Below are positions 1,817 to 60,100 of a stretch of 64,000 nucleotides of DNA, one piece after another; position 1 is the stretch's first letter, and the number at the start of each line of letters is the position of its first letter. The position numbers and the translations under genes are program-made. Where the stretch lies: assembly GCA_022821495.1 (NCBI GenBank), contig JAJEDN010000078.1:30612-94611 (forward strand). The letters run 5' to 3'. This stretch comes from Candidatus Poribacteria bacterium (GTDB lineage: Bacteria; Poribacteria; WGA-4E; WGA-3G). The notes beneath the pieces are model-generated. The model made no database searches. It saw only the letters and a list, made by a program, of their open reading frames with translations, and was not told where the DNA came from.

Positions 1817-2842
1817 ATGGAAGATAAATATAGTGTTATATGCCTTTATACCACTAAAGTCGGTAGGATCGCTTTTTGCTGCGCGCTGATCTTAACCCTT
1901 TTCTCACGCTCCTTGATTAGTGAAGCCGCACCGAGTGGACAACTCGCTTACGCCGTCAACGGGTTCGACGAGAATTTAGGACGTTTCGATTGGAATCTCT
2001 ATACCACCGCGATTAGAGGCACTAAGGATTTAAAAGCGATACCTTTGAACCATAAAGGTGTGTATCCAGCGTGGGGACGGGAAGGCGAATTACTTTATTT
2101 TATACAATGGCATGGCGGGCAAGCGGACGTCTACTCCATTGACCCCGAAAGCCCTAAAAATAAGAAGCGGGTTACACAGATCTCTGGCACATATCGGTTT
2201 CTCGCTGTTTCTCCGAATGGCAAAAAACTCGCTTTCAACGGTTGGACAATGGAACAACTCCCGCAAGACAATCAGATATGGTTGCTGGATACCGAAACTG
2301 GGGAAATGGAGGCTATGACCCAGATCCCGCATTTCGGATGGCCCTACTCTTTCTGGGGGATTTCTTGGGCACCTAATGGAAAGAAACTCGTCTTTTCTCT
2401 CTCCAGACCTGGCTGGTTAGAACACCTCTACATTTTGGACATTGAAACAAAAGAGATAGAAATCTTAACCGAACTCAATAAAGATTTTTATCCTGTCTGG
2501 TCACCTGATGGACAACGCATCCTCTTCTTCAGGTGGAATAGAGAATTTGATACCTTCTGTACGATTGATATTGAAACTAAGGCGATTACTACCTTATTTG
2601 ATGTTGACAAAGCAACAGGATATTGGGCGGATTGGTCCCCTGAAGGAGACTATATGATCTATTCTCGGTGGGGTACGGTCTACCTATATGATTTCGAGAG
2701 TGAAGACACCGAAGAACTCGTCGAAATTGAGGGCAGTGTCTTTGTCATATCGTGGTTACGCGATATTCGGATACTACCTGTTGAACCGCGCAAAAAATTG
2801 GTCACAACTTGGGGCGATATTAAACAGGGAAGCACGCAGTAA
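1817..2842 (+). CDS. TolB-like PD40 beta-propeller repeat protein with signal peptide
   Basis: Repeated SPNGKKLAF / WAPNGKKLVF / WSPDGQRILF / WSPEGDYMIY blades. Hydrophobic N-terminus. Confidence 0.7.
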   Translation: MEDKYSVICLYTTKVGRIAFCCALILTLFSRSLISEAAPSGQLAYAVNGFDENLGRFDWNLYTTAIRGTKDLKAIPLNHKGVYPAWGREGELLYFIQWHGGQADVYSIDPESPKNKKRVTQISGTYRFLAVSPNGKKLAFNGWTMEQLPQDNQIWLLDTETGEMEAMTQIPHFGWPYSFWGISWAPNGKKLVFSLSRPGWLEHLYILDIETKEIEILTELNKDFYPVWSPDGQRILFFRWNREFDTFCTIDIETKAITTLFDVDKATGYWADWSPEGDYMIYSRWGTVYLYDFESEDTEELVEIEGSVFVISWLRDIRILPVEPRKKLVTTWGDIKQGSTQ

Positions 2843-2911
2843 TAGTATTTGCCATCTTACTATTTCACTGTATCTGCTTAAATTCCAAGCGTACCTGAAA
2901 AGGACGAACCT

Positions 2912-5338
2912 GTGTTATCCAACGTTGAAAAAGCGTTAGAATACGATAAAATCAAAGCACTTCTAAAAAATTACACCGCTTCTCAACTCGGGACAGCGAG
3001 GGTCGACACCCTTACGCCGTTTTATGACGTTGATAAGGTTCGCTACTTACAAGCGTTGTGTAGTGAAACGAAGTGTTTTCATCAACTCTACGGCGGGATC
3101 CCGTTAAATGGATTAAGAGACATCCGCGGTTCGCTAAAGCGTGCTGCCAAAACCGGTTCAATTTTGGACGCTGAGGAACTCCTTGAAGTCCGAAAAGTCG
3201 CGAAAATTCCGAGCGACATTCACCGCACCTTTGAAAAACGCGAGCGCGAGGAATTTCCGAACCTCTTTTCCATTGTGGACGTACTGCCCGATTTTCCTGA
3301 ATTAGTTGAGGCAATTGATTATTGCATCAATCCTGAAGGGGTCCTACTGGACAGGGCAAGCCCCGAATTGCGTAATATCCGGCGCAAGTTGTCGCGGCTC
3401 CGTGAAAATATACAACAAAAACTCGAAGCCACCCTCCGATCACCAGAACATCAAAAAGCGATTCAAGAATCCGTCATCACCTCGCGAAATAACCGGTACG
3501 TCATCCCAATTAAACAGGAAGCGCGGTCATTTTTTCCGGGCGTCGTTCAAGGACAATCCACAAGCGGGGCAACCTTCTTCGTCGAACCTTTGGGCGTTGT
3601 GCAGATGAACAATGAACTGCACGAAACCGCTGAAGCCGAACACCGCGAAATTCAACGCATCCTCCTTGACCTCACCGACCGCGTCCGTGCCTATCTGTCA
3701 GCGCTGGAATTGTCCCTTGATTTGTTAGCTGAACTCGATTTTCTGAACGCAAAGGCACGTTTCAGCCTCGAATTGAGTGCTGTTGAACCGAAACTGAATA
3801 CCCGGGGTATCATCAAATTGATTGACGCACGGCATCCGTTGTTGGAATTCCATCTTCGGCATGCACAGAAGGCTGATACAGATCCTGAAGAGGACGCGAA
3901 CCTACCAGACCAGATCGTACCGACAAATGTTCATATCGGTAAAGACTTCAAGACGTTGGTCATCACCGGGCCGAATACTGGCGGCAAAACAGTCGTCCTT
4001 AAAACAGTCGGACTATTGGTGCTGATGGCGCAGTCCGGTCTACATATCCCGGCGGAACACGGGAGTAAAATCGGTATCTTTGAACATGTGTTTGCTGACA
4101 TTGGAGACGACCAAGGCATAGAACAGAATCTGAGTACTTTCTCTTCACACATTACTAAAATCGCGGAGATGCTTAAAACGATTGAGACTTCCGATTATTC
4201 GTTAATTCTATTAGATGAGATTGGTGCTGGTACGGATCCCAGCGAAGGAACAGCACTCGGTATGGCACTCCTCGATTGGCTCGGAAGCCGGCAGGTGAAT
4301 ACCATTGTCACAACACACTATGGAGCTCTTAAAGCGTACGCGCATACCCAGCAATCTATGGAAAATGCCTCAATGGAGTTTGACTGGACGACCCTACGAC
4401 CCACATACCGGTTACAGGTTGGCGTGCCGGGGAGTAGTAACGCATTGAAGATTGCAGCGCAATTAGGGATTCCATCCGAAATCCTTGATGAAGCAGAGAC
4501 GCATATCGGAAACAACAACGTCGCTGTCGAAGATTTACTTGTGCGCTTACAGGAAACGCAAAGCGAATTGGATACCGAACGTGAACGCCTTGAAGATAAA
4601 ATTCGAGAAGCTGACACAGCGTACCAGAAACATACAGAACTCCTTCAGACCTTGGAAGCTGACCAGCAGACGCTGAAACAGCAGGCGGAGAACGAAGCAC
4701 GGAACATCGTTGCGGGTGCAAGGCGCACCGTAGAGAACCTCGTTGCTGATATACGTAAAGAGCAAGCCTCTAAACCGAGCATCCGAAACGCTTTCTCAAA
4801 AATAGAAACCGCCAAAAAATCACTGCAACAAGAAAAGCCTAAGAAACAACCCGAACCATCAAAGAAGGTCAAGATCGAGGTCGGTATTGGTGATAAGGTG
4901 CGAGTCAAGAGACTGAACCGATTCGGGGAGGTTATCGCTATTAAGACCAGCGGAAAAGTGCCACTACAAGTGCTTATGGGGGACATGAAAATGCAAGTCG
5001 CCTACGACGACATTGATTCAGTTCACCCGAAACAGAAAAGCGCGCACCTTTCGACTTCTGTGCTTGATATTCAGTATAACAAAGCCAGTGCCATTAGTGA
5101 TGAACTTGATATGCATGGGATGAGAGCGCAAGAGGCATCGGAGCGCATTAATAAGTACCTTGATGACGCAATCCTCGCGGGATTTCCATCGGTGCGTATT
5201 CTCCACGGGAAAGGAACCGGTGCCTTGCGCCAAGTGGTTCATGCGGCTTTAAAAGAATATCCATACGTCGCTAATTATAAACCTGCGTCCTTTGATGAGG
5301 GCGGCGAAGGTGTAACCGTCGCTACATTCAAAGAGTAA
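2912..5338 (+). CDS. mutS2: Endonuclease MutS2 (MutS domain ATPase + C-terminal Smr)
   Basis: GTG start with aaaagga RBS. Walker A GPNTGGKTVVLKT, LLDEIGAGTDPSEG, C-terminal Smr motif LDMHGMRAQEA...ILHGKGTGALR. Confidence 0.9.
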   Translation: MLSNVEKALEYDKIKALLKNYTASQLGTARVDTLTPFYDVDKVRYLQALCSETKCFHQLYGGIPLNGLRDIRGSLKRAAKTGSILDAEELLEVRKVAKIPSDIHRTFEKREREEFPNLFSIVDVLPDFPELVEAIDYCINPEGVLLDRASPELRNIRRKLSRLRENIQQKLEATLRSPEHQKAIQESVITSRNNRYVIPIKQEARSFFPGVVQGQSTSGATFFVEPLGVVQMNNELHETAEAEHREIQRILLDLTDRVRAYLSALELSLDLLAELDFLNAKARFSLELSAVEPKLNTRGIIKLIDARHPLLEFHLRHAQKADTDPEEDANLPDQIVPTNVHIGKDFKTLVITGPNTGGKTVVLKTVGLLVLMAQSGLHIPAEHGSKIGIFEHVFADIGDDQGIEQNLSTFSSHITKIAEMLKTIETSDYSLILLDEIGAGTDPSEGTALGMALLDWLGSRQVNTIVTTHYGALKAYAHTQQSMENASMEFDWTTLRPTYRLQVGVPGSSNALKIAAQLGIPSEILDEAETHIGNNNVAVEDLLVRLQETQSELDTERERLEDKIREADTAYQKHTELLQTLEADQQTLKQQAENEARNIVAGARRTVENLVADIRKEQASKPSIRNAFSKIETAKKSLQQEKPKKQPEPSKKVKIEVGIGDKVRVKRLNRFGEVIAIKTSGKVPLQVLMGDMKMQVAYDDIDSVHPKQKSAHLSTSVLDIQYNKASAISDELDMHGMRAQEASERINKYLDDAILAGFPSVRILHGKGTGALRQVVHAALKEYPYVANYKPASFDEGGEGVTVATFKE

Positions 5339-5385
5339 CATCGTCAAGACTTACGTATTTTTCCATGATAACTACGTATTATGCA

Positions 5386-5412
5386 CTGCAGGCGGGGTTT
5401 GAAACCCTGCAG
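5386..5412. repeat. Hairpin element ctgcaggcggggtttgaaaccctgcag downstream of mutS2 (member of GGGGTTTG[AT]AACCCC hairpin family)
   Basis: Inverted repeat CTGCAGG...CCTGCAG around GGGGTTTGAAACCC. No U-tract follows, so REP-like rather than a classic terminator. Confidence 0.5.
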
Positions 5413-5494
5413 AAATACCCAAGCAAAAACCCTGCGAGGGGGCTGCGTAAGTCCTAACAGTTAGAGAACTTTGACACAAAGAGGTAGATCCATT

Positions 5495-7342
5495 GTGAAC
5501 CGTTCTCCTAAAAGAAACCACGTGCCACGCGAAACGATCGACGAAATTCGGAGTCGAAGCGATATTGTTGAAGTGATCTCCGAATGCGGTATCGCGCTGC
5601 GTCCTGCTGGTCGCGATTACAAAGCGCTGTGTCCGTTTCATAATGAGAAAACACCTTCTTTTACCGTCTCGATCGAAAAGCAGATTTTTTACTGTTTCGG
5701 GTGCCAAACGGGTGGCAATGTTATCTCGTTTGTACAAAAGCATGAGGGTAAATCGTTCATAGAGACAATAGAGTGGTTAGCGGAACGCCAGAATATCATA
5801 CTCCCGACGCAGGACGGCCGCGAAAGTGCTGCACGCAAACGGTTCACAACTCTGGAAGAACTCAATCGCTTTGCAGTAGAACACTATCACCGTCAACTTC
5901 TCACCGAACGCGCGAGCGTACCTGCGATGCAATATCTCAAACGGCGCGGTGTCCAGCCGAAAACACTGCGATCCTTCCAACTCGGATATGCAACGTCTGG
6001 ACGACGGGAATTTGTGAAAATTGCGACGGCGAAAGGTTTTACGATCCAACAGTTGGTGGATGCCGGTTTAATTAAGGACGAGGACAAGGGACCTCAGGAT
6101 CGGTTTTGGAATAGAATCCTTTTTCCTATTCAGAATGAACGGGGTGTACCCGTCGGCTTTGGTGGACGTGCACTCTCTGAAGATCATCAACCTAAATACT
6201 TAAATTCGCCCGCAACGGACCTTTATGATAAAAGCAATATCCTTTACAATCTCGACAAAGCACGTCAATCCGTTTACAAACAACAGCGTGTATTGCTCGT
6301 AGAAGGTTATATGGATGTTTTGATGCTTTATCAGTCTGGGATTGAGAATGTTATAGCATCTTCAGGGACTTCTCTGAGTGAGAACCATGCGCGTTTATTA
6401 AAACGGTTTGTTCCGGAAGTCGTCATCGTTTATGATGGCGATGCTTCTGGTTTTCACGCAGCGCAACGTGGGTTACATCAACTCCTTTCCGAAGATTTAC
6501 GGGTGCGTGTCGCACTGCTGCCGTCAGGCGAAGACCCCGACTCGTTTACACGGCAACACGGGGTTGATGCGTTCACAGAACTCACGGACAAAGCAATAAA
6601 TCTCATAGAATTTCAGATTCAAGCTGCTATTCAAAATCAGGACCTTCACAAGGTTGAGGTAAAAGCGCAAATTGTTAAAGAGGTTACCGAGACACTCTTG
6701 AATCTCAAAAGTCGGGTTGAACGCAGCGAATACATCAAATATGCAGCGAAGGAACTCCATATTGATGAAACCGTCCTTTGGGATCAATTGAAAGACGCAG
6801 GATTCAAAGGGACATCAGTACCTCGTCAAACCAGTCGAGGCAAGGTCGCACCTCAGAAATTGTCCATACGCGCCCAAATTGAACGTCAACTTATTGAAGC
6901 CTTAATTCAGGATCCAACGTTACTTTCGTACGTCAAATCTCAATTTGACTATCAACATTTCACGGAACCACGCTTCGCCAAAATATCGAAATTGCTCTGG
7001 GAGGCGGATATGGATGATGAACGTATGGATATTCAAGCCGTGATCAATGATGACGGTGATGAGGCGTTAAATGCTTTCGTTTCAAGTGTGCTGCTGGGGA
7101 GAAAACCGCCCCCAAACTTACAAGCACGGGTTAATGGATGCCTGAAGAAATTGCGTAACTTCCATTTACAAGATCTTGAGCAGCGCGTCCGATCACACGC
7201 AGTCGCCGAAGGTGCCGATGACAGGGAAACCCTTAAACAGTTAGTGAAACTTTCAAATGAAAGACGTGCCTTACCGAGGCGCGAGGCAGAACGCACTCAC
7301 GATGAAAATTTAAACGAGGAAGGAGTTGATAATGGATTTTAA
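5495..7342 (+). CDS. dnaG: DNA primase DnaG
   Basis: GTG at 5495 with aagaggtag RBS (ORF is open from 5471). CHC2 zinc finger [11 protein letters not shown]...YCFGCQTGG. Toprim [10 protein letters not shown]...VYDGD. The stop overlaps the rpoD start. Confidence 0.85.
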
Positions 7343-8870
7343 AGACCATCCTGCACTTGATTATCTTGACACCGAGGGTACTGATGAACTCGGATATGAC
7401 GATGAATTGGCTGAGATAGCCGCAGTCAGCACCGGTTATACTGATGATTCAGTGAAAGTGTACATGCGCGAGATGGGAAAATTTCAGCTACTCGATAAGA
7501 CGCAAGAGGTTGAACTCGCTAAACGGATTGAGGCGGGGCATCGCACTGCCCATGAAGCCACTTTCAGCACTGCACTCGCAATTACCGAGATTCGGAAGCT
7601 GCTCTATAAAATCGCTACGGCTAAAAAGCGGGCTTCTGATATTATTGATATGCACGTTTCCAGCACTTCGACGCAGAATAAAGAAAAGAAACTCCGTGAG
7701 CAAGTCAAGAAGGCGTTGGGTGTTCTTGAAAACCTTGAGATGGAGCGTCTCTCTACCGACACGCCTGCATCCACTAAAAATGGGAAACGGTCTCCGAAGA
7801 AATCGAAGAACCGCGTGAATCTTATTAAGACCCTTGAAGCCCTTAAAATTGATCGGGAAGAGATTAGTAAAATCTCTGACCTCGTTAAACAGGCAGAGTA
7901 CCAGATCAGTACCTGGGAAATTGAAATCCAGCAGCTACAGCAGAAATATGATATTCCGGATGAGTGGCTTAACGGAAGTAACGGCACGGAGCGGAAGTTT
8001 GAAACGGATGCCGTGAGAGAGGCTTATGTAAATATTGTCCGCTTACAGCGCAGCATCCGCCAACACATGAACGAAATTGGTATCCCTCGCGACCAACTCA
8101 AATCTCTCACCCAGCAAATTGATAAAGGCGAATCCGAAGCGCAAGACGCGAAGATGGCTATCGTTGAAGCCAATCTCCGACTCGTCGTGAGTATCGCTAA
8201 AAGGCACAAAAACCGCGCATCAGGACTCGAATTCCTTGATTTGATTCAGGAAGGGAATATCGGATTAATGCGGGCGGTTGACAAGTTTGATTACCAACGC
8301 GGGTATAAGTTTAGCACCTATGCAACATGGTGGATTCGACAGGGGATCACACGCGCGATTGCCGACCAAGGACGAACCATTCGCATACCTGTACACATGC
8401 ATGAGCGAATTAACAAAATTCGGCGCGTGCAGCGTTCGCTGCTACAAGAATTGGGGAACGAACCGACGGCTGAGCAGATTGCTGAAGATCTTAAAATCTC
8501 AACGAACAAAGTCAACGAGGCTTTAGCGGTCGCACCTGAAACCGCCTCCTTAGACACGCCGATCGGTGAAGAGGATGAGAATCCGCTCGGTGCTTTTATT
8601 ATGGATATTGACTCTCCTTCCCCAGTACAAGAGGCAGAATTGAATATCCTCAAAGAGCAGATTCAAGAGGTCCTTTCCGATTTAAACGAACGCGAAAGAA
8701 GAGTGATTTCTCTCCGTTTCGGGATTGAGGATGGTTACCCAAGGACACTTGAAGAAGTTGGTAATATCTTCGATGTCACACGCGAACGGATCCGCCAAAT
8801 TGAAGCGAAAGCGCTCCGTAAATTACGGCACCCCAGACGGAGTCGTAAACTACGAGACTTCGTCCACTAA
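7332..8870 (+). CDS. rpoD: RNA polymerase primary-type sigma factor (RpoD / sigma-70 group 1)
   Basis: ATG at 7332 after gaggaaggag RBS. Region 2 [35 protein letters not shown]. Region 4 and C-terminal [15 protein letters not shown]. Confidence 0.9.
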
Positions 8871-8902
8871 TGTGCTGTCACCTTTCAAATGAATGGTAAA
8901 GT

Positions 8903-8930
8903 GTCCGTAGGGGCGTGGTTTCCCCGCCCG
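8903..8930 (+). terminator. Weak hairpin downstream of rpoD (gtccgtaggggcgtggtttccccgcccg), related to the CCGTAGGGGCG motif of the R4 repeats
   Basis: GGGCG...CGCCC stem. Shares ccgtaggggcg with the repeats at 25897-25915 and 59943-59963. Confidence 0.3.
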
Positions 8931-8980
8931 ATATCCCCATCAGTTTAGATGTGACAGACTACTAACCTATCATAAAAAAT

Positions 8981-9009
8981 TTGATTTTAAATCCCAAATA
9001 TAGTATAAT
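8981..9009 (+). promoter_or_regulatory. Near-consensus sigma70 promoter for the tRNA pair (TTGATT, 17 nt spacer, TATAAT)
   Basis: ttgatt 8981-8986, tataat 9004-9009, tRNA begins 9029. Confidence 0.6.
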
Positions 9010-9028
9010 TCCTATATCAAAACACGAA

Positions 9029-9101
9029 GGGCCCATAGCTCAGTGGTCAGAGCCACCGGCTCATAACCGGTTGGTCCTAGGTTCGAGTCCTAGTGGGCCC
9101 A
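9029..9101 (+). tRNA. tRNA with anticodon CAT (elongator Met or Ile2/lysidine type. G1-C72 pair argues against initiator)
   Basis: Acceptor GGGCCCA/TGGGCCC, anticodon arm ACCGG CTCATAA CCGGT, T-arm CTAGG TTCGAGT CCTAG. Confidence 0.85.
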
Positions 9102-9211: not shown

Positions 9212-10333
9212 ATGGAAAGTTGGGAAACCCCGCATTTCGTAGAGGCTGGGGTGAAAGCTATAGACTGCGACATCCATAACGAAGTCCCAACCTTGCAGAC
9301 ACTCTATCCATACATGTCTGATTTCTGGTGCGACTATTGTCAGAACTCAGGATTTAGAGGACCTGATGCCAACGATTATCCGAGAGGCGCGCCGCTGACG
9401 ACGCATCCAGACGCAATTTCCCCTTGGGACATCGATCTCGCACATATACGTGAACGGCTCCTTGAGGGATGGAACCTTGAATACGGTGTTCTCAATTGTT
9501 CCTATCGGGTCCAAAGCATTCACAACCCAGACCTTGCCGCCGCAATCGCGCAAGCCGTAAACGACTGGCAGATAGAACACTGGCTCGACCCAGAACCTCG
9601 ACTCCGTGCTTCTCTTGTGATACCCAGCCAGATGCCAGACCTCGCTGCAAAGGAAATAGAGCGGGTCGGCGCGCATCCAGGGTTCGTCCAAGTTGTCCTA
9701 CCTGTTAGGTCTCGGACACCTTATGGGAATCGATGCCACCATCCGATTTATGAGGCAGCAGTCCGGCATAATCTCGCTATAGGTATCCAGTACGGTGGCG
9801 CGCCCGGTACCCAACCTTCACCAACAGGTTGGCCATCGACGTTTTTAGAGGAGTATAGCGGCATGACGCAGGTCTTCCAAGCACAGGTGATTAGCCTCGT
9901 CGCGGAAGGGATTTTCGACCAGTTTCCTGAGCTTCGGGTTGTGCTCATTGAGAGTGGATTTACATGGCTGCCCGCAATGATGTGGCGAATTGACAAAGAG
10001 TGGCGCGGCCTCCGAAACAATACGCCGTGGGTCAAACGTCCGCCATCTGAGTACATGCGAGAACATATCCGGTTTACCTTACAACCGATTGATGCACCGC
10101 CGACACGCGAGCAGCTCCTTCAGATCATCGGGCAATTGGAATCCGATGAAATGTTAATGTTTTCAACGGATTACCCACATTGGCAGTTCAACACGCCGAA
10201 TGAGGCACTACCATCAGAGTTACCGGGTGCACTCGCCCGTAAAATTCTGCACGAGAACGCAAGTAACTTCTATCAGTTGGAACCTACGCATCCGACTTCA
10301 AAGTCCCCTGATAAGGGGGATTTAGGGGGTTAG
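9212..10333 (+). CDS. Amidohydrolase-2 family metal-dependent hydrolase (TIM barrel, ACMSD-like), paralog 1. Last ~11 codons lie inside an R1 repeat
   Basis: aaggagacc RBS. CDIHNEVP N-terminal metal-binding motif, HPGFVQVVLP, STDYPHWQF C-terminal motif. The stop codon falls inside repeat copy 10299-10333. Confidence 0.75.
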   Translation: MESWETPHFVEAGVKAIDCDIHNEVPTLQTLYPYMSDFWCDYCQNSGFRGPDANDYPRGAPLTTHPDAISPWDIDLAHIRERLLEGWNLEYGVLNCSYRVQSIHNPDLAAAIAQAVNDWQIEHWLDPEPRLRASLVIPSQMPDLAAKEIERVGAHPGFVQVVLPVRSRTPYGNRCHHPIYEAAVRHNLAIGIQYGGAPGTQPSPTGWPSTFLEEYSGMTQVFQAQVISLVAEGIFDQFPELRVVLIESGFTWLPAMMWRIDKEWRGLRNNTPWVKRPPSEYMREHIRFTLQPIDAPPTREQLLQIIGQLESDEMLMFSTDYPHWQFNTPNEALPSELPGALARKILHENASNFYQLEPTHPTSKSPDKGDLGG

Positions 10334-10555
10334 GGATTTAGGCTCAAAGTCCCCCTGATAAGGGGGATTTAGGGGGTTAGATTTTATAGCGTTCAGAAAA
10401 GTCCTCTGATGAGGTTCCACTTCAAAGTCCCCCTGATAAGGGGGATTTAGGGGGTTATCTTCAGGACTTAGGCCTCCGACTTCAAAGTCCCCCTGATAAG
10501 GGGGATTTAGGGGGTTAGATTTTATAGCGTTCAGAGATGCTATGGATTTCACAAG
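10299..10555. repeat. R1 repeat array: 4 copies of CAAAGTCCCCCTGATAAGGGGGATTTAGGGGGTTAG with interspersed attttatagcgttcaga units
   Basis: Copies at 10299-10333, 10345-10380, 10423-10458, 10483-10518. Spacing 46/78/60 bp is irregular and the spacers resemble each other. Confidence 0.85.
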
Positions 10556-10580
10556 AAAACGGTCTACCACAAGATATTAA

Positions 10581-10616
10581 CTGACAACTGACAACTGACA
10601 ACTTATAACTGATAAC
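10581..10616. repeat. Heptamer tandem repeat (CTGAYAA)x5 just upstream of amidohydrolase paralog 2
   Basis: ctgacaa ctgacaa ctgacaa cttataa ctgataa. Confidence 0.8.
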
Positions 10617-10633
10617 CCATAGGGATCAACGCC

Positions 10634-11710
10634 ATGGAAAACACAAAAACGAAACGTTTGAAATATCCAGTAATTGATTGCGATATCCATAACTCTGTTC
10701 CACCCGGCGGGTTGTCCCCTTATCTATCCCAGCGGTGGCAGGATCATCACACGACTTTCGGTCTCCGTGGTCAAATCGGCGGATACTATCCGCGAGCACT
10801 CCTGAATGCTGCACGCCACGACGCATGGCCCCCCTCAGGTCTCTCTCCCGGTGCAGATTTGGGGTTCATGCAGGAGCAACTACTGGATGCGTGGGATATT
10901 GAATACGGTGTGCTTAACCCGTTAATCCCTGTCGGTGAACAGCTGAATCTTGAGTATAGTGATGCGCTCGCAAGTGCCGTCAACGACTGGCAGGTTGCCG
11001 ATTGGGTAGAACCTGAACCCCGTCTACGCGCCTCCATTGTCCTTCCGTATGAAAACGGGGATCTCGCCGCTGCGGAAATCCATCGGTGCGGTCCAAATCC
11101 AGCGTTTGTTCAGATCTTGCTCCTCGCGCGCACGCGGGAACCCCTTGGCAACCGAAAATATTGGAAAATCTACGAGGCAGCCGTTGAATACGATCTACCC
11201 ATCGGTATCCATTTCGGCGGCAATCAGGGACCCATTACAGGTGCCGGGTGGCCCTCCTACTACATAGAGGACCACGGCGGTATGCCGCAAGCCTTCCACA
11301 CCCAAGTTATTAGTTATGTGTGTGAAGGGATATTTGACCGTTTTCCGACGCTCAAGGTTGTGCTAATTGAGGGCGGCTTTGCATGGCTCCCACCGCTCAT
11401 CTGGCGACTGGATGCCACTTGGGAAAAACTCCGATCCGAAATCCCGGACCTCAAACGGAAACCCTCGGAATACATCCGCGACCATTTCTGGCTCAGCACA
11501 CAACCGATGGAAGAACCACCGAAACGTGAGTATTTCGAGCAGCTGCTTGAACAGATGGACATGAACGACAAACTCATGTTCGCAACGGATTACCCACACT
11601 GGGATTTTGATGCCCCTGACCGTGCGCTTCCGAGTTTCCTCGCACCCGATCTGCGTAAAAAAATCTTATCAGAAAACGCCCGTGAACTTTACGCATTCGA
11701 TAAACTGTAG
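10634..11710 (+). CDS. Amidohydrolase-2 family metal-dependent hydrolase, paralog 2
   Basis: VIDCDIHNSVP, ATDYPHWDFD. Clearly paralogous to 9212..10333. Confidence 0.75.
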   Translation: MENTKTKRLKYPVIDCDIHNSVPPGGLSPYLSQRWQDHHTTFGLRGQIGGYYPRALLNAARHDAWPPSGLSPGADLGFMQEQLLDAWDIEYGVLNPLIPVGEQLNLEYSDALASAVNDWQVADWVEPEPRLRASIVLPYENGDLAAAEIHRCGPNPAFVQILLLARTREPLGNRKYWKIYEAAVEYDLPIGIHFGGNQGPITGAGWPSYYIEDHGGMPQAFHTQVISYVCEGIFDRFPTLKVVLIEGGFAWLPPLIWRLDATWEKLRSEIPDLKRKPSEYIRDHFWLSTQPMEEPPKREYFEQLLEQMDMNDKLMFATDYPHWDFDAPDRALPSFLAPDLRKKILSENARELYAFDKL

Positions 11711-11724
11711 TAGCGATTTCCCTT

Positions 11725-11760
11725 GTAGCATAGTTTCCTGTTAGGCTGTGCCTACTATCA
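11725..11760. repeat. R5 dispersed element (ttgtagcatag...ctgttaggctgtgcct), second copy at 36547-36590
   Basis: Shared ttgtagcatag and ctgttag[gc]ctgtgcct strings. Both copies lie downstream of genes and contain a GGCTGT..AGCC-type hairpin. Confidence 0.5.
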
Positions 11761-11791
11761 ACCAATAACCAACAACCAATAACCAATAACC
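11761..11791. repeat. Heptamer tandem repeat (CCAAYAA)x4 upstream of the Rieske gene
   Basis: accaataaccaacaaccaataaccaataacc. Confidence 0.8.
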
Positions 11792-11794
11792 TAA

Positions 11795-12232: not shown

Positions 12233-12269
12233 CACATAGTTCTCAGAACTTATGCACAACGCACCCATA

Positions 12270-12322
12270 CTTCCAATCCTCCAATCTTCCAGTCTTCCAC
12301 CCTTCCAATCTCTAATCCTCCG
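12270..12322. repeat. Degenerate 7-8 bp tandem repeat (CTTCCAAT-like) in convergent spacer, overlapping the PhyH stop
   Basis: cttccaatcctccaatcttccagtcttccacccttccaatctctaatcc. Confidence 0.6.
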
Positions 12323-13786: not shown

Positions 13787-14001
13787 CTTTGGATACACTT
13801 TCCCGTTTGAAGGGAATGTAACGGTTGTCAGTCGTCAGTGCGGTTTTTCTGCGAAAAACCTTTCAGTTATCAGTTAAAGAGAGATGTTGTGGAGGGGCTA
13901 TAAAGTAACTGCCACAAAAAATTAACTGAAAACCGATAACTGATAACTCATCCCGGACACCTTCAACAATTGAAAGCCTCTGAGATAATCCCAAAAAAAG
14001 A

Positions 14002-14853: not shown

Positions 14854-14892
14854 CTGACGGAAACCGATGGCTGAAAACTGATAACTGACAAC
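14854..14892. repeat. Heptamer tandem repeat (CTGAYAA-like) upstream of the PhyH-HEAT gene
   Basis: ctgacgg aaaccga tgg ctgaaaa ctgataa ctgacaa. Confidence 0.7.
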
Positions 14893-14913
14893 CCCTAAAA
14901 GGGAGATTTAAGC

Positions 14914-16450: not shown

Positions 16451-16475
16451 CAGGCGGGGTTTGTAACCCCGCCTG
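16451..16475 (+). terminator. Perfect hairpin caggcggggtttgtaaccccgcctg downstream of the PhyH-HEAT gene
   Basis: 11-bp stem with tgt loop, followed by tatcaatatttcat. Same GGGGTTTGTAACCCC core as 5386, 23323 and 30185. Confidence 0.5.
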
Positions 16476-19507: not shown

Positions 19508-19588
19508 CTTACCGCTGATTTTGTTGCCCTATTATGTAGGTTTTCGCGTTTATTGTCAAATTCTCCATAACACAAACCGCTACACCGA

Positions 19589-19640
19589 CCTTCCACCCTT
19601 CCCCTCTTCCACCCTTCCACCCTTCCCCTCCTACCCTTCC
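19589..19640. repeat. Octamer-like tandem repeat (CCCTTCCA)n in divergent promoter region
   Basis: ccttccacccttcccctcttccacccttccacccttcccctcctacccttcc. Confidence 0.75.
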
Positions 19641-19671
19641 TGTACGCACGATCTTCCGAGCGCGACGCTTA

Positions 19672-19700
19672 CTGACAACCGATAACTGAAAACTAAAAAT
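19672..19700. repeat. Heptamer repeat (CTGAYAA-like) upstream of the Gfo/Idh/MocA gene
   Basis: ctgacaa ccgataa ctgaaaa ctaaaaa. Confidence 0.65.
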
Positions 19701-20977: not shown

Positions 20978-23227
20978 TTATTCCTCTTCCGCGGGTTCTT
21001 CAGGTTCTGCGGGTTCTACCGGTTCCACGGGTTCCCCAATATCTTCTGGCAGCATACCATCAACCATATCTTCTGGCAGCATACCATCAGCCATTTCTGG
21101 CGGTGTGAACAAAAGAACGGCATCTTTGAGACCTACCACAATAAACCCGTCAATGTTAATTGTGATTTCGACAGTCGGTGGGGGTCCGAAATCCGGTGGG
21201 AATGGTAATTCATCTAATGGTGGAAAACCTTCAGGAAGTAGTAAATCTGGTGGCATCTCGCCATCTTCAGGCATTTCACCGTCTTCAGGCATCTCACCAT
21301 CTTCGGGCATTTCGCCGTCTTCAGGTGCTTCATCGCCTTCAGGTATCTCACCGTCTTCAGGCATTTCGCCGTCTTCAGGTGCTTCATCGCCTTCAGGCAT
21401 CTCACCGTCTTCAGGCATCTCACCGTCTTCAGGTAGTGGGAAGCCTTCTGGTGGTAGAAGTGCGTCTGGAGGGAGGAATGCATCTGGCGGTAATGCATCT
21501 GGCGGAAATGCGCCTGGCGGAGGTCCTAACGACTCAAGCGTTATTGTAATCAAACTTGGGTCAATCTGCTCATCTTCCATCTTTTTGATGAGTTCGTCCA
21601 GATTCTCAGGCAACGGTTTTGGCTCTTCGTTGGGGCCACCAAAAAAGAAAACGTCCCCAAAGAATGGATCAGGAGGACCGAATGGGTTCTCAGAAGCAAC
21701 GCTGAGAAGCGCAGGACCAACAGGGAAATCCTCAGGGACCTCAAGCGTAACGTCTCTCTGAATCGTCCGCTCGTCTCCAGCTGCGCTCCAGTGTGGAAGT
21801 AACACGACTGAAACCGTGATATCTTCACCCGGCGTGATTCCCTCTTCAGGGACAATAACCTCATGCAGCTCCGCTAACATAATTTGCGGTTTGTCCTGGA
21901 TGGAAATTGACACATCTGATAGTGTGGCTTGCCCGGCACTGTTTGAGAGTATGTCCGCAAAAGAGTGCACAATCCGATCGACGTTTAGCAGCACATCGAA
22001 AAACGGATCTGGAGACGCGCTCTGAAATGATTCTGTATAAACAGTTTCAGTTTCTTTGAATTGGAGCGTGATAGTCCCGTCTACTGTTGCTGAACTTATT
22101 TCTTGTCGGATTGAATCTATCGTAACAGCTGCAACGATCGGCAAGAACGATTCCAGACCGTAGGCTACTTTGTGATTCTTTTCCACTACAGGACCATTAC
22201 CTGCTTGATAAGCGACTTTCACCGGAATCATTGACGGTACTTCACCAAGCACTCCCACAACTGCGGGTCTGAGATCCTTGGTGATTGTCCCAATTGGATT
22301 CCCGTAGGCTGATGAAGATTTATAAGGTATCTGTAAGTTGGCAACAATACCATTGGTAACGGCTCTATAGACCGGTAATGCCGATTTGCCAGCACCAACC
22401 ATCGGATGTCCAAACGCTACAAATGTGCCATCATCGTAGACCTGTGTCACCGTTCCGAAACCGATAGAATTGACGACATCGCCTGTTGATACAGCGACAC
22501 CAATCATATCCCCAGCGGAAAGTCTGGTTGTTGTCGTTGGGGGTGCTGCCGGTGCATCACCAATGTCGGCAAACAATTGGACAAAGTCGAAGTGAGAATC
22601 TGCCAAATGTGATGAGAGTTGTTCAAGCCTATGCGGTTGTATACCCGAAATCGTTAGCGGGGTTTTTACCGGCGTATATGCCGCTTGGATACCACCCGGG
22701 GCTGCGGCGGCACGTTCTGCTTCAAGCATCTCCCCAAATGTTTGGTGGTGAATTGCGTTTTCCATCGCATCAATCGATGTTGCCCAGAACCGACTCGGTG
22801 CTCTCGCAAAGGCGTCGCCATAAGCGAGCGCGCCCATAATACGTCCCGGAGGACCGACTGGACTGCCCGACATACCTTGTGCGATGCCACCCATCGCCTC
22901 AGCCATTTCATCCGTGAGTTCAAATTCGTAGAGCGGAAACCCAAATCCGAAGTCTCGAACGCCACGGAATTGAGCCTCAAGTATAACTCTGTTTGTGCCT
23001 TCAAGCACAGTAACGAGTTGAACGGGTGTCTTATCCACCAGTTGTCGCGCTTCGTCCTCATACATGTTTTCGAGAACTACATCGCCTAAGAGCGGCGCGC
23101 CACTAAATGCGGATGCTTCGTCTATTGCCGTAGGGTTCTCAAGTTGGGTCTGCTCTTCATCAGAAGAACACCCCCATTGACTGAGAACCACAACAGCGAT
23201 ACCTATTAGCACAAAAAATTTTTTCAT
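20978..23227 (-). CDS. Secreted lipoprotein, SpoIVB/peptidase-S55-like domain with acidic Pro/Glu/Asp-rich C-terminal tandem repeats
   Basis: GGAGG RBS. Signal peptide with lipobox LSQWGCSS. FGTVTQVYDDGTFVAFGHPMVG resembles the SpoIVB GT(L/V)T..DP..G.F.ALGH motif. C-terminus is (PEDGEM)n. Confidence 0.6.
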   Translation of the reverse strand: MKKFFVLIGIAVVVLSQWGCSSDEEQTQLENPTAIDEASAFSGAPLLGDVVLENMYEDEARQLVDKTPVQLVTVLEGTNRVILEAQFRGVRDFGFGFPLYEFELTDEMAEAMGGIAQGMSGSPVGPPGRIMGALAYGDAFARAPSRFWATSIDAMENAIHHQTFGEMLEAERAAAAPGGIQAAYTPVKTPLTISGIQPHRLEQLSSHLADSHFDFVQLFADIGDAPAAPPTTTTRLSAGDMIGVAVSTGDVVNSIGFGTVTQVYDDGTFVAFGHPMVGAGKSALPVYRAVTNGIVANLQIPYKSSSAYGNPIGTITKDLRPAVVGVLGEVPSMIPVKVAYQAGNGPVVEKNHKVAYGLESFLPIVAAVTIDSIRQEISSATVDGTITLQFKETETVYTESFQSASPDPFFDVLLNVDRIVHSFADILSNSAGQATLSDVSISIQDKPQIMLAELHEVIVPEEGITPGEDITVSVVLLPHWSAAGDERTIQRDVTLEVPEDFPVGPALLSVASENPFGPPDPFFGDVFFFGGPNEEPKPLPENLDELIKKMEDEQIDPSLITITLESLGPPPGAFPPDALPPDAFLPPDALLPPEGFPLPEDGEMPEDGEMPEGDEAPEDGEMPEDGEIPEGDEAPEDGEMPEDGEMPEDGEMPEDGEMPPDLLLPEGFPPLDELPFPPDFGPPPTVEITINIDGFIVVGLKDAVLLFTPPEMADGMLPEDMVDGMLPEDIGEPVEPVEPAEPEEPAEEE
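21252..21433. repeat. 18-bp tandem repeat (GGCATCTCACCGTCTTCA, ~10 units) encoding the PEDGEM hexapeptide on the minus strand
   Basis: Near-perfect head-to-tail copies with A/G and C/T third-position variants. Confidence 0.85.
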
Positions 23228-25649: not shown

Positions 25650-26035
25650 CGATAGGTTCGGTTTTGCGGTGTACACACCCCAGGGAATGTCATACGGAAA
25701 CCTTTATACCGTTGATTCATACAATCTGTATTCCCAACCAAACCAGATACGACGTGGAAACCTTGAAGACTTCAAAAACCTCCTGAATCCGGTAGGGTTT
25801 ATTTTCTTGGGTGTTTCTTCAGTATCTCTGTAGAGTTCAACCTCCTGAATCCCGTAGGGATGGTATCTCTGTAGAAAAACGCGCCGTCACCGACCTAAGC
25901 CCCGTAGGGGCGATATCTATAGAGGTCTACAGCGAAAAATTAACAGAACGGGACTGAAGACGGGACCTCCACCTTATAGTGTGATGTTTTTCAAACCTCT
26001 CTTGAATCCCGTAGGGATGGTATCTCTGTAAAGAA
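25650..26035. repeat. Composite R3/R4 repeat cluster
   Basis: taggttcggtttt at 25653. R3 copy at 25677-25722. ggaaaccttgaaga at 25757. Copies of CCTCCTGAATCCCGTAGGGATGGTATCTCTGTAGA at 25777, 25841 and 25995, plus the variant AAGCCCCGTAGGGGCGATATCTATAGAGG at 25897. Confidence 0.75.
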
Positions 26036-26057
26036 ACTTGGGTTAAAATATAAGAGG

Positions 26058-30173: not shown

Positions 30174-30184
30174 CTGTAGGAAGG

Positions 30185-30200
30185 GTTTCTAACCCCGATG
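30185..30200. repeat. Degenerate copy of the GGGGTTT[GC]TAACCCC hairpin core, downstream of the aminotransferase gene
   Basis: ggaagggtttctaaccccg. Confidence 0.3.
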
Positions 30201-30210
30201 CTAAATTGGA

Positions 30211-30410
30211 TAGGACTTACGCCCGGTCTCTTAAAGTCCCCCTGATAAGGGGGATTTAGGGGGTTTCTTACATGCGATCTTAGGACTTACGCATGGTCTC
30301 TTAAAGTCCCCCGGATAAGGGGGATTTAGGGGGTTTCTTACATACGACGACTTACGCCCGGTCTCTTAAAGTCCCCCTGATAAGGGGGATTTAGGGGGTT
30401 TCTTACATGC
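30211..30410. repeat. R1 tandem array: 3 units (~66-70 bp) of taggacttacgcccggtctcttaaaGTCCCCCTGATAAGGGGGATTTAGGGGGtttcttacatgc
   Basis: Units at 30211-30280, 30281-30346, 30347-30410. The core is identical to the R1 copies at 10345 etc. Confidence 0.85.
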
Positions 30411-30443
30411 AACATTTTATTCCACAATACTGTCAAACTATTT

Positions 30444-30677
30444 ATGAGACGCGCTATTGGAGACACCAACATGGACATTTCCCTCGAAAACGAAACACTG
30501 AATATCTATAGAAGAGAAATTGAGACACTTATTCAGCGCGATGAGAAGTATAAAGACTTAGGTCCCGCTGAACTTGAGGCAATTGTGCGCGCCTTTGAAT
30601 TTACTTTAACAAACGGTCGTGAGCAAGTCAGAGCGCAAATGCTTTACGACCTCGTTCATGAGAAAAGGGACGGCTAA
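30444..30677 (+). CDS. Small hypothetical protein (77 aa, or 68 aa from the ATG at 30471), translationally coupled to the downstream ATPase
   Basis: The TAA stop overlaps the downstream ATG in TAATATG. No recognisable domain. Confidence 0.45.
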   Translation: MRRAIGDTNMDISLENETLNIYRREIETLIQRDEKYKDLGPAELEAIVRAFEFTLTNGREQVRAQMLYDLVHEKRDG

Positions 30678-59820: not shown

Positions 59821-60100
59821 CCCGGTAGGTTCGGTTTCCTAACCGAACCGGATACTACGCGGAAACCTTGGATATGCCAGAACCCCTCTTTAGCCCCGTA
59901 GAGGCGGCATCTGTGTAGAACGCGTTCACCCCTAAAAAATCAAGCCCCGTAGGGGCGGCATCTATTAAGTAAGGCCCTACAAAATACCGTGAAAAAAATC
60001 TAAATCGACCCTTATGGGGCGGCATCTACAAAGACCTGTCAAAAATGTCGTGGAAAATCGCTAAATTGACACCTATGGTTCGGTTTCCTAACCGCACCGG
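59821..60100. repeat. Composite R4 repeat cluster
   Basis: Bracketed by direct copies of ggttcggtttcctaaccg[ac]accgg (59829-59851, 60077-60100). Contains ggaaaccttggata and 3 units of AGCCCCGTAGGGGCGGCATCT + ...gtgaaaaaatc (59892, 59943, 60007). Homologous to 25650-26035. Confidence 0.75.

Follow-up and report, generated by a model that had tools for sequence, protein, structure and literature searches.

The R1 repeat of Candidatus Poribacteria: a probable stem-loop module of IS701-type miniature elements, and an insertion at the end of an amidohydrolase gene

In a stretch of 64,000 nucleotides from a Candidatus Poribacteria bacterium (assembly GCA_022821495.1, contig JAJEDN010000078.1, positions 30,612 to 94,611; this whole stretch is called the window below) a short repeat, R1, recurs at three places, at one of which it supplies the end of an amidohydrolase gene. 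Our analysis makes it probable that a family of miniature inverted-repeat transposable elements (MITEs) in these (sponge-associated) bacteria has R1 as its conserved internal stem-loop module, and that the copies in the window are rearranged derivatives of such elements. The main carrier would be an element of 91-133 bp comprising a 13-bp left terminal repeat YAGGACTTACGCA, a 9-nt linker, the 33-nt R1 module, a variable segment of 25-65 nt and a right repeat TGCGTAAGTCCTR, which would insert in AT-rich intergenic DNA and duplicate 5 bp of its target. In the window, left-half units of this carrier would have been amplified in tandem at 30211-30412, a composite of four to five R1 units would occupy ~10278-10624, and a single arm of the type termed B below would lie at position 1.

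R1 copies in the window and across the Poribacteria

The 28-nt core of the repeat, GTCCCCCTGATAAGGGGGATTTAGGGGG, has seven matches in the window, all on the forward strand. Five are exact (starting at 10349, 10427, 10487, 30236 and 30371), the one at 30306 has T replaced by G in the loop, and the one at 10302 has lost one base, turning C5 into C4; a variant with longer runs, C6-TGATAA-G7-TA-G6, is found at 7-33. No match arose in 100 dinucleotide-preserving shuffles of the window, and the claim of an earlier note on this DNA, that a repeat family is present at three loci, is thus borne out. The arrays that it described are likewise present, with start-to-start spacings of 47/78/60 nt in the first and 70/65 nt in the second, in place of the 46/78/60 and the 66-70-bp units that it had given. 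The recurrence elsewhere, on which it had made the family depend, was also found: an exact scan for a 26-nt core in one genome per species recovered at least 113 stretches, nearly all from metagenome-assembled genomes (MAGs) of Candidatus Poribacteria belonging to many species, with a few from Chloroflexota, Troglogloeales, Ignavibacteria and deltaproteobacterial MAGs. The proteins of the window have their closest relatives in Poribacteria assemblies, at 86-91% identity.

An alignment of 165 copies defines a sharply bounded module, (TCTT)AAAGT-CCCCC-TGATAA-GGGGG-ATTTA-GGGGG-TT, outside which the information content is ~0; the 33-nt module itself is AAAGTCCCCCTGATAAGGGGGATTTAGGGGGTT. A weaker signal upstream of it, aggacttacgca, led us to the left terminal inverted repeat, the start of which is placed exactly 22 nt ahead of AAAGT in 52 of the 160 copies, with the right repeat, its reverse complement, following at +57 to +99 nt in discrete size classes. 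The 64 left/right pairs delimit non-coding elements of ~91, 101, 111, 122 and 133 bp. Identical 5-bp sequences flank 40 of these pairs, as against a chance expectation of about 1 in 1,024 per pair, the target sites being ~70% A+T, and all 160 scored copies are intergenic, compared to 19% intergenic sequence overall. Terminal repeats, 5-bp duplications and small size together are the anatomy of a MITE. Hence, of the suggestion that R1 is a "REP/MITE-like" element (REP, repetitive extragenic palindrome), the MITE half stands on the terminal inverted repeats, the duplications and the autonomous IS701-family partner described next; R1 would not be a free-standing REP.

The IS701-family partner

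The ends of the carrier are those of a larger insertion sequence (IS) in the same genomes, the transposase of which, we infer, mobilises the MITEs in trans. One such IS, at 4548-5637 of locus L118 (loci collected for the comparison are designated L and a number), is 1,090 bp long, is bounded by 14-bp inverted repeats without mismatch, TAGGACTTACGCAA, and is flanked by a TTCTT duplication; its 346-aa product matches the NCBIfam model NF049921 for IS701 family transposases with 373 bits (cutoff 250). In L118 and L119 it occupies the spacer between an aminotransferase gene and a gene for a 68-aa protein, the same spacer that in the window holds the array at 30211-30412. Further copies with the same ends are present in L103, L243 and L244, and many metagenome contigs of ~1,090 bp encode close homologues of the transposase, as expected of a collapsed multicopy IS. 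A metagenome scan with the two terminal repeats alone recovered at least 120 stretches, on contigs of 31-63% GC, from which 118 elements could be read; the 5-bp duplications are perfect in 72 of these. The 118 vary greatly in cargo, nine of them having R1-like modules with other loops (AGAATT, TTGAGAA), mostly as inverted doublets.

After the IS701 copy of L244 two extra solo right terminal inverted repeats stand in tandem (1644-1705, 33 and 28 nt apart). They mirror the tandem left units of the window and hint at a common end-amplifying mechanism.

R1 as a cargo

Several points weigh against R1 being simply a part of these MITEs. The IS itself lacks R1, and among the 64 repeat pairs of the genome loci 21 enclose other cargo hairpins, so that R1 does not derive from the IS. 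Over a third of the Poribacteria copies (54 of 151) have no IS701-type repeat, many of them lying in a second scaffold, family X, or in the short tandem arrays in which R1 also occurs. Outside the Poribacteria, MAGs with 52-59% GC (Chloroflexota and others) contain the exact 33-mer free of IS701-type repeats. No copy in the window retains the two terminal repeats together with a target duplication, as an intact MITE would. The link between R1 orientation and strand composition, treated below, is not expected of a simple DDE-type MITE moved by cut-and-paste as double-stranded DNA. Finally, the apparent conservation of R1 is inflated because the loci were collected through an exact match to the core.

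That R1 is only one of several cargoes is also shown by an element within the window:

5345-5456, + strand: 112-bp MITE with ends of the same type, CAAGACTTACGTA ... TGCGTAAGTCCTA, and another cargo hairpin, GCAGGCGGGGTTTGAAACCCTGC

A sister of this cargo hairpin stands solo at 16454-16475. Family X is a MITE scaffold of ~150 bp with inverted repeats of ~30 bp, TATGGTGAATTAGAG... (also TATGGTGAATTAGAGAAATAAGTAGACA). R1 is central in 27 of its 38 copies, and the others hold other REP hairpins, including a GTAG-tagged REP that belongs to a transposase gene in L019 (see below). Examples are at L012 3184, L074 1737, L002 3741 and ~35 other places.

As a single copy, R1 folds into a hairpin of five C:G pairs, lengthened by T:A pairs and by TAAA/TTTA with one G bulged; as single-stranded DNA the stem is ~11 bp (-8.1 kcal/mol, z = -2.1). 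The C/G hairpin previously described is present, with five C:G pairs and a T:A extension in place of six C/G pairs. The second G5 run had been taken for an alternative pairing partner within the copy. In Chloroflexota contigs (59% GC) R1 occurs as an inverted doublet of two arms, 24 nt apart: type A and type B, the latter with C6/G6/G6 runs and a CTA or TA spacer. This A+B doublet is also the content of two Poribacteria MITEs (in L013 and L082). Folded as single-stranded DNA it gives a single long hairpin, with both G-runs paired to C-runs of the partner (-23 kcal/mol, z = -3.4). Run lengths co-vary among copies, being 5/5/5 in 145 and about 6/6/6 in roughly ten, and the second G-run is preceded by TTAG in type A and by GTAG or CTAG in type B. 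The second G-run is thus better read as the vestige of an outer doublet arm than as an alternative partner within a single copy. Within the doublet the whole module, second G-run included, would pair with its partner; the A+B form would be ancestral, R1 being half of this older doublet, of which most Poribacteria copies would keep the A arm alone. Doublets are absent from the window, and close pairs of copies in Poribacteria are direct in 21 cases and inverted in one. The window does contain a copy of the B type:

1-40, + strand: type-B R1 copy (C6 TGATAA G7 TA G6 TT at 7-35), arranged like the type-B arm adjoining the repeat in L013

This element is cut by the edge of the window; the 'cgtatt' preceding it agrees with how the left terminal inverted repeat ends (...TTACGCATT).

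Two carriers of other kinds were considered and rejected. An inverted R1 pair in L057 might have been the ends of a transposase-bearing element, and it encloses a DUF559 gene and two ORFs of no recognised kind, with no transposase; a phage origin finds the core in only one viral contig. Separately, nested insertions of small palindromes break R1 copies at L094 3268-3393, L090 2763-2923, L105 ~6794, L002 ~7413 and L016 ~4419; one such palindrome, GGTGAATGCCCATAAGGCATTCATACC, sits between the first G-run and TTTAGGGGG, and another in the loop, implying that R1 itself is a target or recombination partner.

REP-associated transposases

The sequence of R1 brings to mind REPs and their doublets (REPINs), and it may be asked if R1 is a REP/REPIN-type element moved as single-stranded DNA by a REP-associated tyrosine transposase (RAYT), which the MITE scaffolds merely captured. 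R1 is indeed an imperfect palindrome, short and extragenic, and its tail is conserved. It forms REPIN-like inverted A+B doublets in the Chloroflexota MAGs, L013, L082 and metagenome MITEs, it keeps sharp module boundaries in at least four flanking contexts, GTAG-tagged REPs fill the same central slot in family X, and in every context its orientation goes with strand composition, which is what single-strand, replication-coupled insertion would produce. Poribacteria also encode Y1_Tnp proteins: tblastn of all loci with an IS200 TnpA sequence and with a locus RAYT found three such RAYT-like genes, in L061, L019 and L070. However, each of these is flanked by its own GTAG-type REPs of other families, and no Y1_Tnp gene flanked by R1 was found in the loci sampled (0.9 Mb only). 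Furthermore, type A lacks a GTAG tag, and most of the copies that can be dated moved as MITEs, as is shown by their target duplications and their constant placement at -22. We consequently consider this origin unlikely, though far from negligible; it could hold for the origin of the module even if its present spread is by the MITEs that we favour.

Two of the three genes, at L019 6851-7743 and L070 6775-7692, form textbook REP/RAYT units, with Y1_Tnp between inverted GTAG-tagged REPs (CCGGTAGGTGCGGTTTGGAACCGCACC, GTAGTAGGGCAATTCATTGCCC). A small hairpin repeat family of the window, at 25842-26037 and 59886-59965 (GCCCCGTAGGGGC then GATATCTAT, or CCCGTAGGG then ATGGTATCTCTGTAG), is probably a genuine REP/RAYT system, given its likeness to the REPs flanking Y1_Tnp at L061 7228-7701 (region 6900-8000).

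The insertion between the amidohydrolase genes

The first array of the window has a direct consequence for a protein-coding gene. Its features are as follows:

9212-10333, + strand: amidohydrolase gene (Pfam Amidohydro_2), with its last 17 codons (10280-10330) and its TAG stop (10331-10333) in inserted DNA
10278-10624, + strand: composite insertion of ~335 nt, made of MITE-derived units and a heptamer tract, not in relatives
10278-10290, + strand: degenerate left terminal inverted repeat TGGAACCTACGCA, identical to TAGGACTTACGCA in 10 of 13 bases and placed 22 nt ahead of copy 1, as is canonical
10300-10331, + strand: R1 copy 1 (C4 for C5), the frame being open through the hairpin to the TAG
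10346-10378, + strand: R1 copy 2 (exact core), followed by the tail TTAGATTTTATAGCGTTCAGA, which is repeated after copy 4
10398-10414, + strand: possible decayed, truncated R1 copy AAAGTCCTCTGATGAGG, tentatively recognised by reading the sequence
10424-10456, + strand: R1 copy 3 (exact core)
10462-10516, + strand: left-repeat-like CAGGACTTAGGCC (10462-10474, offset -22), linker and R1 copy 4 (10484-10516)

The open reading frame ends in ...EPTHPTSKSPDKGDLGG (also given as ...FYQLEPTHPTSKSPDKGDLGG), with the TAG directly after copy 1. It had been proposed that the repeat provides the last ~11 codons and the stop of this gene and has thereby remodelled a C-terminus, and both parts of this proposal hold. 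The last ~11 codons do derive from R1, and ten orthologues (P0001-P0021) end in FYQL or FYQLF, none of them having the additional 17 residues of the window protein, which are encoded by the junction, the left end of the element and the hairpin. An exact-protein look-up of the window amidohydrolase returned no identical record. A canonical R1 copy in the place of copy 1 would stop translation at the TGA of the loop; it is the C4 deletion that brings translation into the single stop-free frame of R1.

In three syntenic relatives the two amidohydrolase genes are separated by 16, 18 or 38 nt, and R1 was not found within 9 kb of this locus. In the window the intervening DNA contains two degenerate left repeats and four R1 copies, with a probable fifth in decayed form, and in addition a 67-nt stretch duplicated internally and the heptamer tract. 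The notion that the arrays sit at operon boundaries is hence to be corrected, as the first array splits a gene pair that is tightly packed in relatives. The insertion would have entered this very short spacer with loss of the native stop, after which ribosomes would read on across the element's end and the R1 hairpin as far as the TAG, adding the 17 residues.

The left boundary of the insertion is ambiguous. On one reading the left repeat would start at 10278. On the other, cagttggaa (Gln-Leu-Glu codons, 10274-10282), which is identical to the nine bases after the stop codon in the relative L115 (5078-5086), would be native up to 10282; this match suggests that a 12-nt deletion removed the stop before or with the insertion, and only CCTACGCA (10283-10290) may be element-derived, as a 5'-truncated repeat. 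The closest syntenic relative, L114, has a Transposase_31 (PD-(D/E)XK-type) gene between its sigma-70 and amidohydrolase genes and a Cas_APE2256 gene downstream (2393-3427, 8313-9071).

The second array

30211-30412, + strand: three tandem left-half MITE units, starting at 30211, 30281 and 30346

Each unit consists of a left repeat TAGGACTTACGCC/A at -22 (with 1, 0 and 2 mismatches, respectively), a linker, an R1 core and ~15 nt, with the R1 modules at 30233-30265, 30303-30335 and 30368-30400; no right terminal inverted repeat was found after any of the units. Left repeats in the window are thus located at 10278, 10462, 30211, 30281 and 30346. The spacer containing this array measures 298 nt in the window against 55 or 138 nt in relatives, from which it is too divergent for the boundaries to be placed by alignment; the syntenic loci of relatives lack either window array.

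Short hairpin repeats in direct orientation with a spacing of 47-78 nt might recall degenerate arrays of clustered regularly interspaced short palindromic repeats (CRISPR). However, this is refuted by the inter-repeat "spacers" being themselves repeated, with the units at 30211-30412 mutually 94-96% identical over 67 nt. Moreover, the spacing is irregular and the units number only three or four, no adjacent cas genes were seen among the proteins scanned, and R1 also occurs as dispersed single copies with terminal inverted repeats and target duplications. We give a CRISPR origin practically no chance.

The spacer after the aminotransferase gene (window 30174-30471; L118 4204-4560) appears as a recurrent landing site: that of L118 holds the IS701 element, another repeat end (ACGTGAGTTTGATAAAT...) and a GTAG REP, and that of the window holds the R1 array.

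R1 as a possible RNA element

The possibility of a functional RNA element, be it a terminator or attenuator, an mRNA-stabilising 3' hairpin or a small RNA family, had been raised in the earlier note in the form of a transcription attenuator or small RNA. The region folds strongly as RNA (-130 kcal/mol, z = -4.95) and many copies lie 13-170 nt after a stop codon. Against this, copies between co-directional genes are in both orientations (59 sense, 32 antisense), 24 lie between convergent genes and 17 between divergent ones, and the first array is inside a gene pair that is tightly packed in relatives. Neither array of the window contains a terminator-like (T-tract) or promoter-like site. Rfam at the gathering threshold reports only three tRNAs in the whole window, and a permissive Rfam scan of 10200-10700 gives at best 19.8 bits against a threshold of 34. 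A role of this kind is accordingly very improbable.

Orientation and strand composition

The orientation of R1 is related to the base composition of the strand on which it lies. When the GC skew of a locus is regressed on the R1 strand with gene strand controlled, t = -5.1; the G-rich strand of R1 is on the negative-skew strand in 79 of 112 loci, and AT skew concurs. In R1-strand coordinates the GC skew at third codon positions is -0.076 for co-oriented and -0.034 for anti-oriented genes, so that a component of -0.055 +/- 0.006 does not depend on orientation. The bias extends to all carrier contexts, and 19 of 21 neighbour pairs more than 500 nt apart have the same orientation. An asymmetric target motif was rejected as the cause, the targets being simply AT-rich. 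The leading strand is usually G+T-rich, and by this rule R1 as written would be on the lagging strand; a gene-strand proxy leans slightly the opposite way, and the few copies mapped on complete chromosomes, too few as points, give no clean two-replichore pattern.

This bias is the main reason for which we keep a single-strand or selection-based role of the hairpin under consideration. R1 could be a strand-oriented DNA motif selected by the host, such as a protein-binding or architectural site or one read at the replication fork, with the MITEs only disseminating it. The regression, the skew component, the bias across all contexts and the common orientation of distant neighbours would all fit such a motif, as would the identical 33-mer in several phyla. 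Against it, the exact-match collection inflates the apparent conservation, the association is statistical, the complete chromosomes do not add a clean pattern, no candidate binding protein is at hand, and the copies are often tandemly amplified or decayed, like selfish DNA; we therefore hold host selection to be improbable. It is also conceivable, if rather unlikely, that the 33-nt module, at first a REPIN-like doublet, entered several unrelated MITE scaffolds and several phyla as a single-strand-acting hitch-hiker on DDE transposons, with the replication fork fixing or selecting its orientation as an enzyme or host factor inserted or recognised it in single-stranded form.

Relationship to known elements

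The kind of element described here is well known: we read it as the Poribacteria branch of an IS701-type MITE superfamily of cosmopolitan distribution, its cargo being a REPIN-like hairpin. In a search of the literature we found no paper on REPs or MITEs of Poribacteria and none with the R1 core strings, the single relevant string match being the terminal repeat of ISPlag1, an IS701-group element of Planktothrix with terminal repeats beginning CAGGACTTACGCA (CAGGACTTACGCAAGC...; PMC2464740). Its terminal 13 nt are identical to those of the Poribacteria elements, and both systems combine an IS701-family DDE transposase of ~340 aa with short non-coding derivatives having the same inverted repeats. 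ISPlag1 is larger, with 1,306 bp and 29-bp repeats (PMC2464740) as opposed to 1,090 bp and 14-bp repeats in the Poribacteria IS; a further difference is the R1 hairpin that the Poribacteria MITEs have as their cargo. These MITEs also reach high copy number across the whole candidate phylum, which is not reported in the literature searched.

To the REP/REPIN elements and their RAYT transposases (Bertels & Rainey 2011, PMC3116915) R1 is similar in being a short extragenic imperfect palindrome, in its inverted doublets in some genomes and its tandem clusters, and in the presence of RAYT-like genes in the same genomes. It differs in that none of these genes is flanked by R1 in the sampled loci and in that its type A has no GTAG tag; REPINs, for their part, have neither the DDE-type terminal inverted repeats nor the 5-bp duplications of most R1 copies.

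Two further groups invite comparison. The small dispersed repeats (SDR) of heterocystous cyanobacteria, ascribed to Elhai et al. in 2008, are reportedly very short hairpin modules with sharp bounds, nested in larger MITE-like repeats, in genomes that are also said to have tandem heptamer repeats; in sequence and phylum they differ from R1. The Correia elements (NEMIS, Neisseria miniature insertion sequences) are MITEs of 100-150 bp with terminal inverted repeats, found next to or in gene ends; their target duplication is TA, they include IHF sites and promoters, and RNase III processes them. As with the R1 elements, their insertion at gene ends alters termini and operon spacing, the difference being the TA duplication versus 5 bp in the R1 MITEs.

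Other repeats in the window

Tandem heptamers AACYRAN stand just upstream of start codons at 10579-10620, 11760-11794, 13924-13951, 14869-14896 and 19670-19697, the first ending 14 nt before ATG 10634 and the second directly before ATG 11795. Across all loci 43% of such tracts are within 60 nt of a start on the same strand, and the one before 10634 is missing from the orthologous spacer of relatives; they may be a 5'-UTR (untranslated region) or translation-initiation feature. Intergenic octamer tandem repeats, CTTCCANY, are present at 12262-12322 and 19574-19634. In-frame tandem repeats within coding sequence are found at 21216-21470, with an 18-nt period inside the minus-strand gene 20978-23227, and at 816-1490, as three 225-nt units inside the TPR protein gene 236-1795.

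Implications

The IS701-type ends AGGACTTACGCA define a MITE superfamily that is cosmopolitan, on contigs ranging from 31 to 63% GC, and in which the hairpin cargo is interchangeable. If the coupling of R1 orientation to strand composition were confirmed on whole chromosomes, it would be unusual for a DDE-type MITE and worth a mechanistic look. The amidohydrolase locus offers a concrete case of how such elements can alter genes, with an insertion that takes out a stop codon and gives an enzyme 17 more residues, and that spreads a tightly packed gene pair by about 300 nt. With many elements per Poribacteria chromosome, spurious small open reading frames (...PLIRGI / ...KGDLGG) and altered gene ends are to be expected in these genomes.

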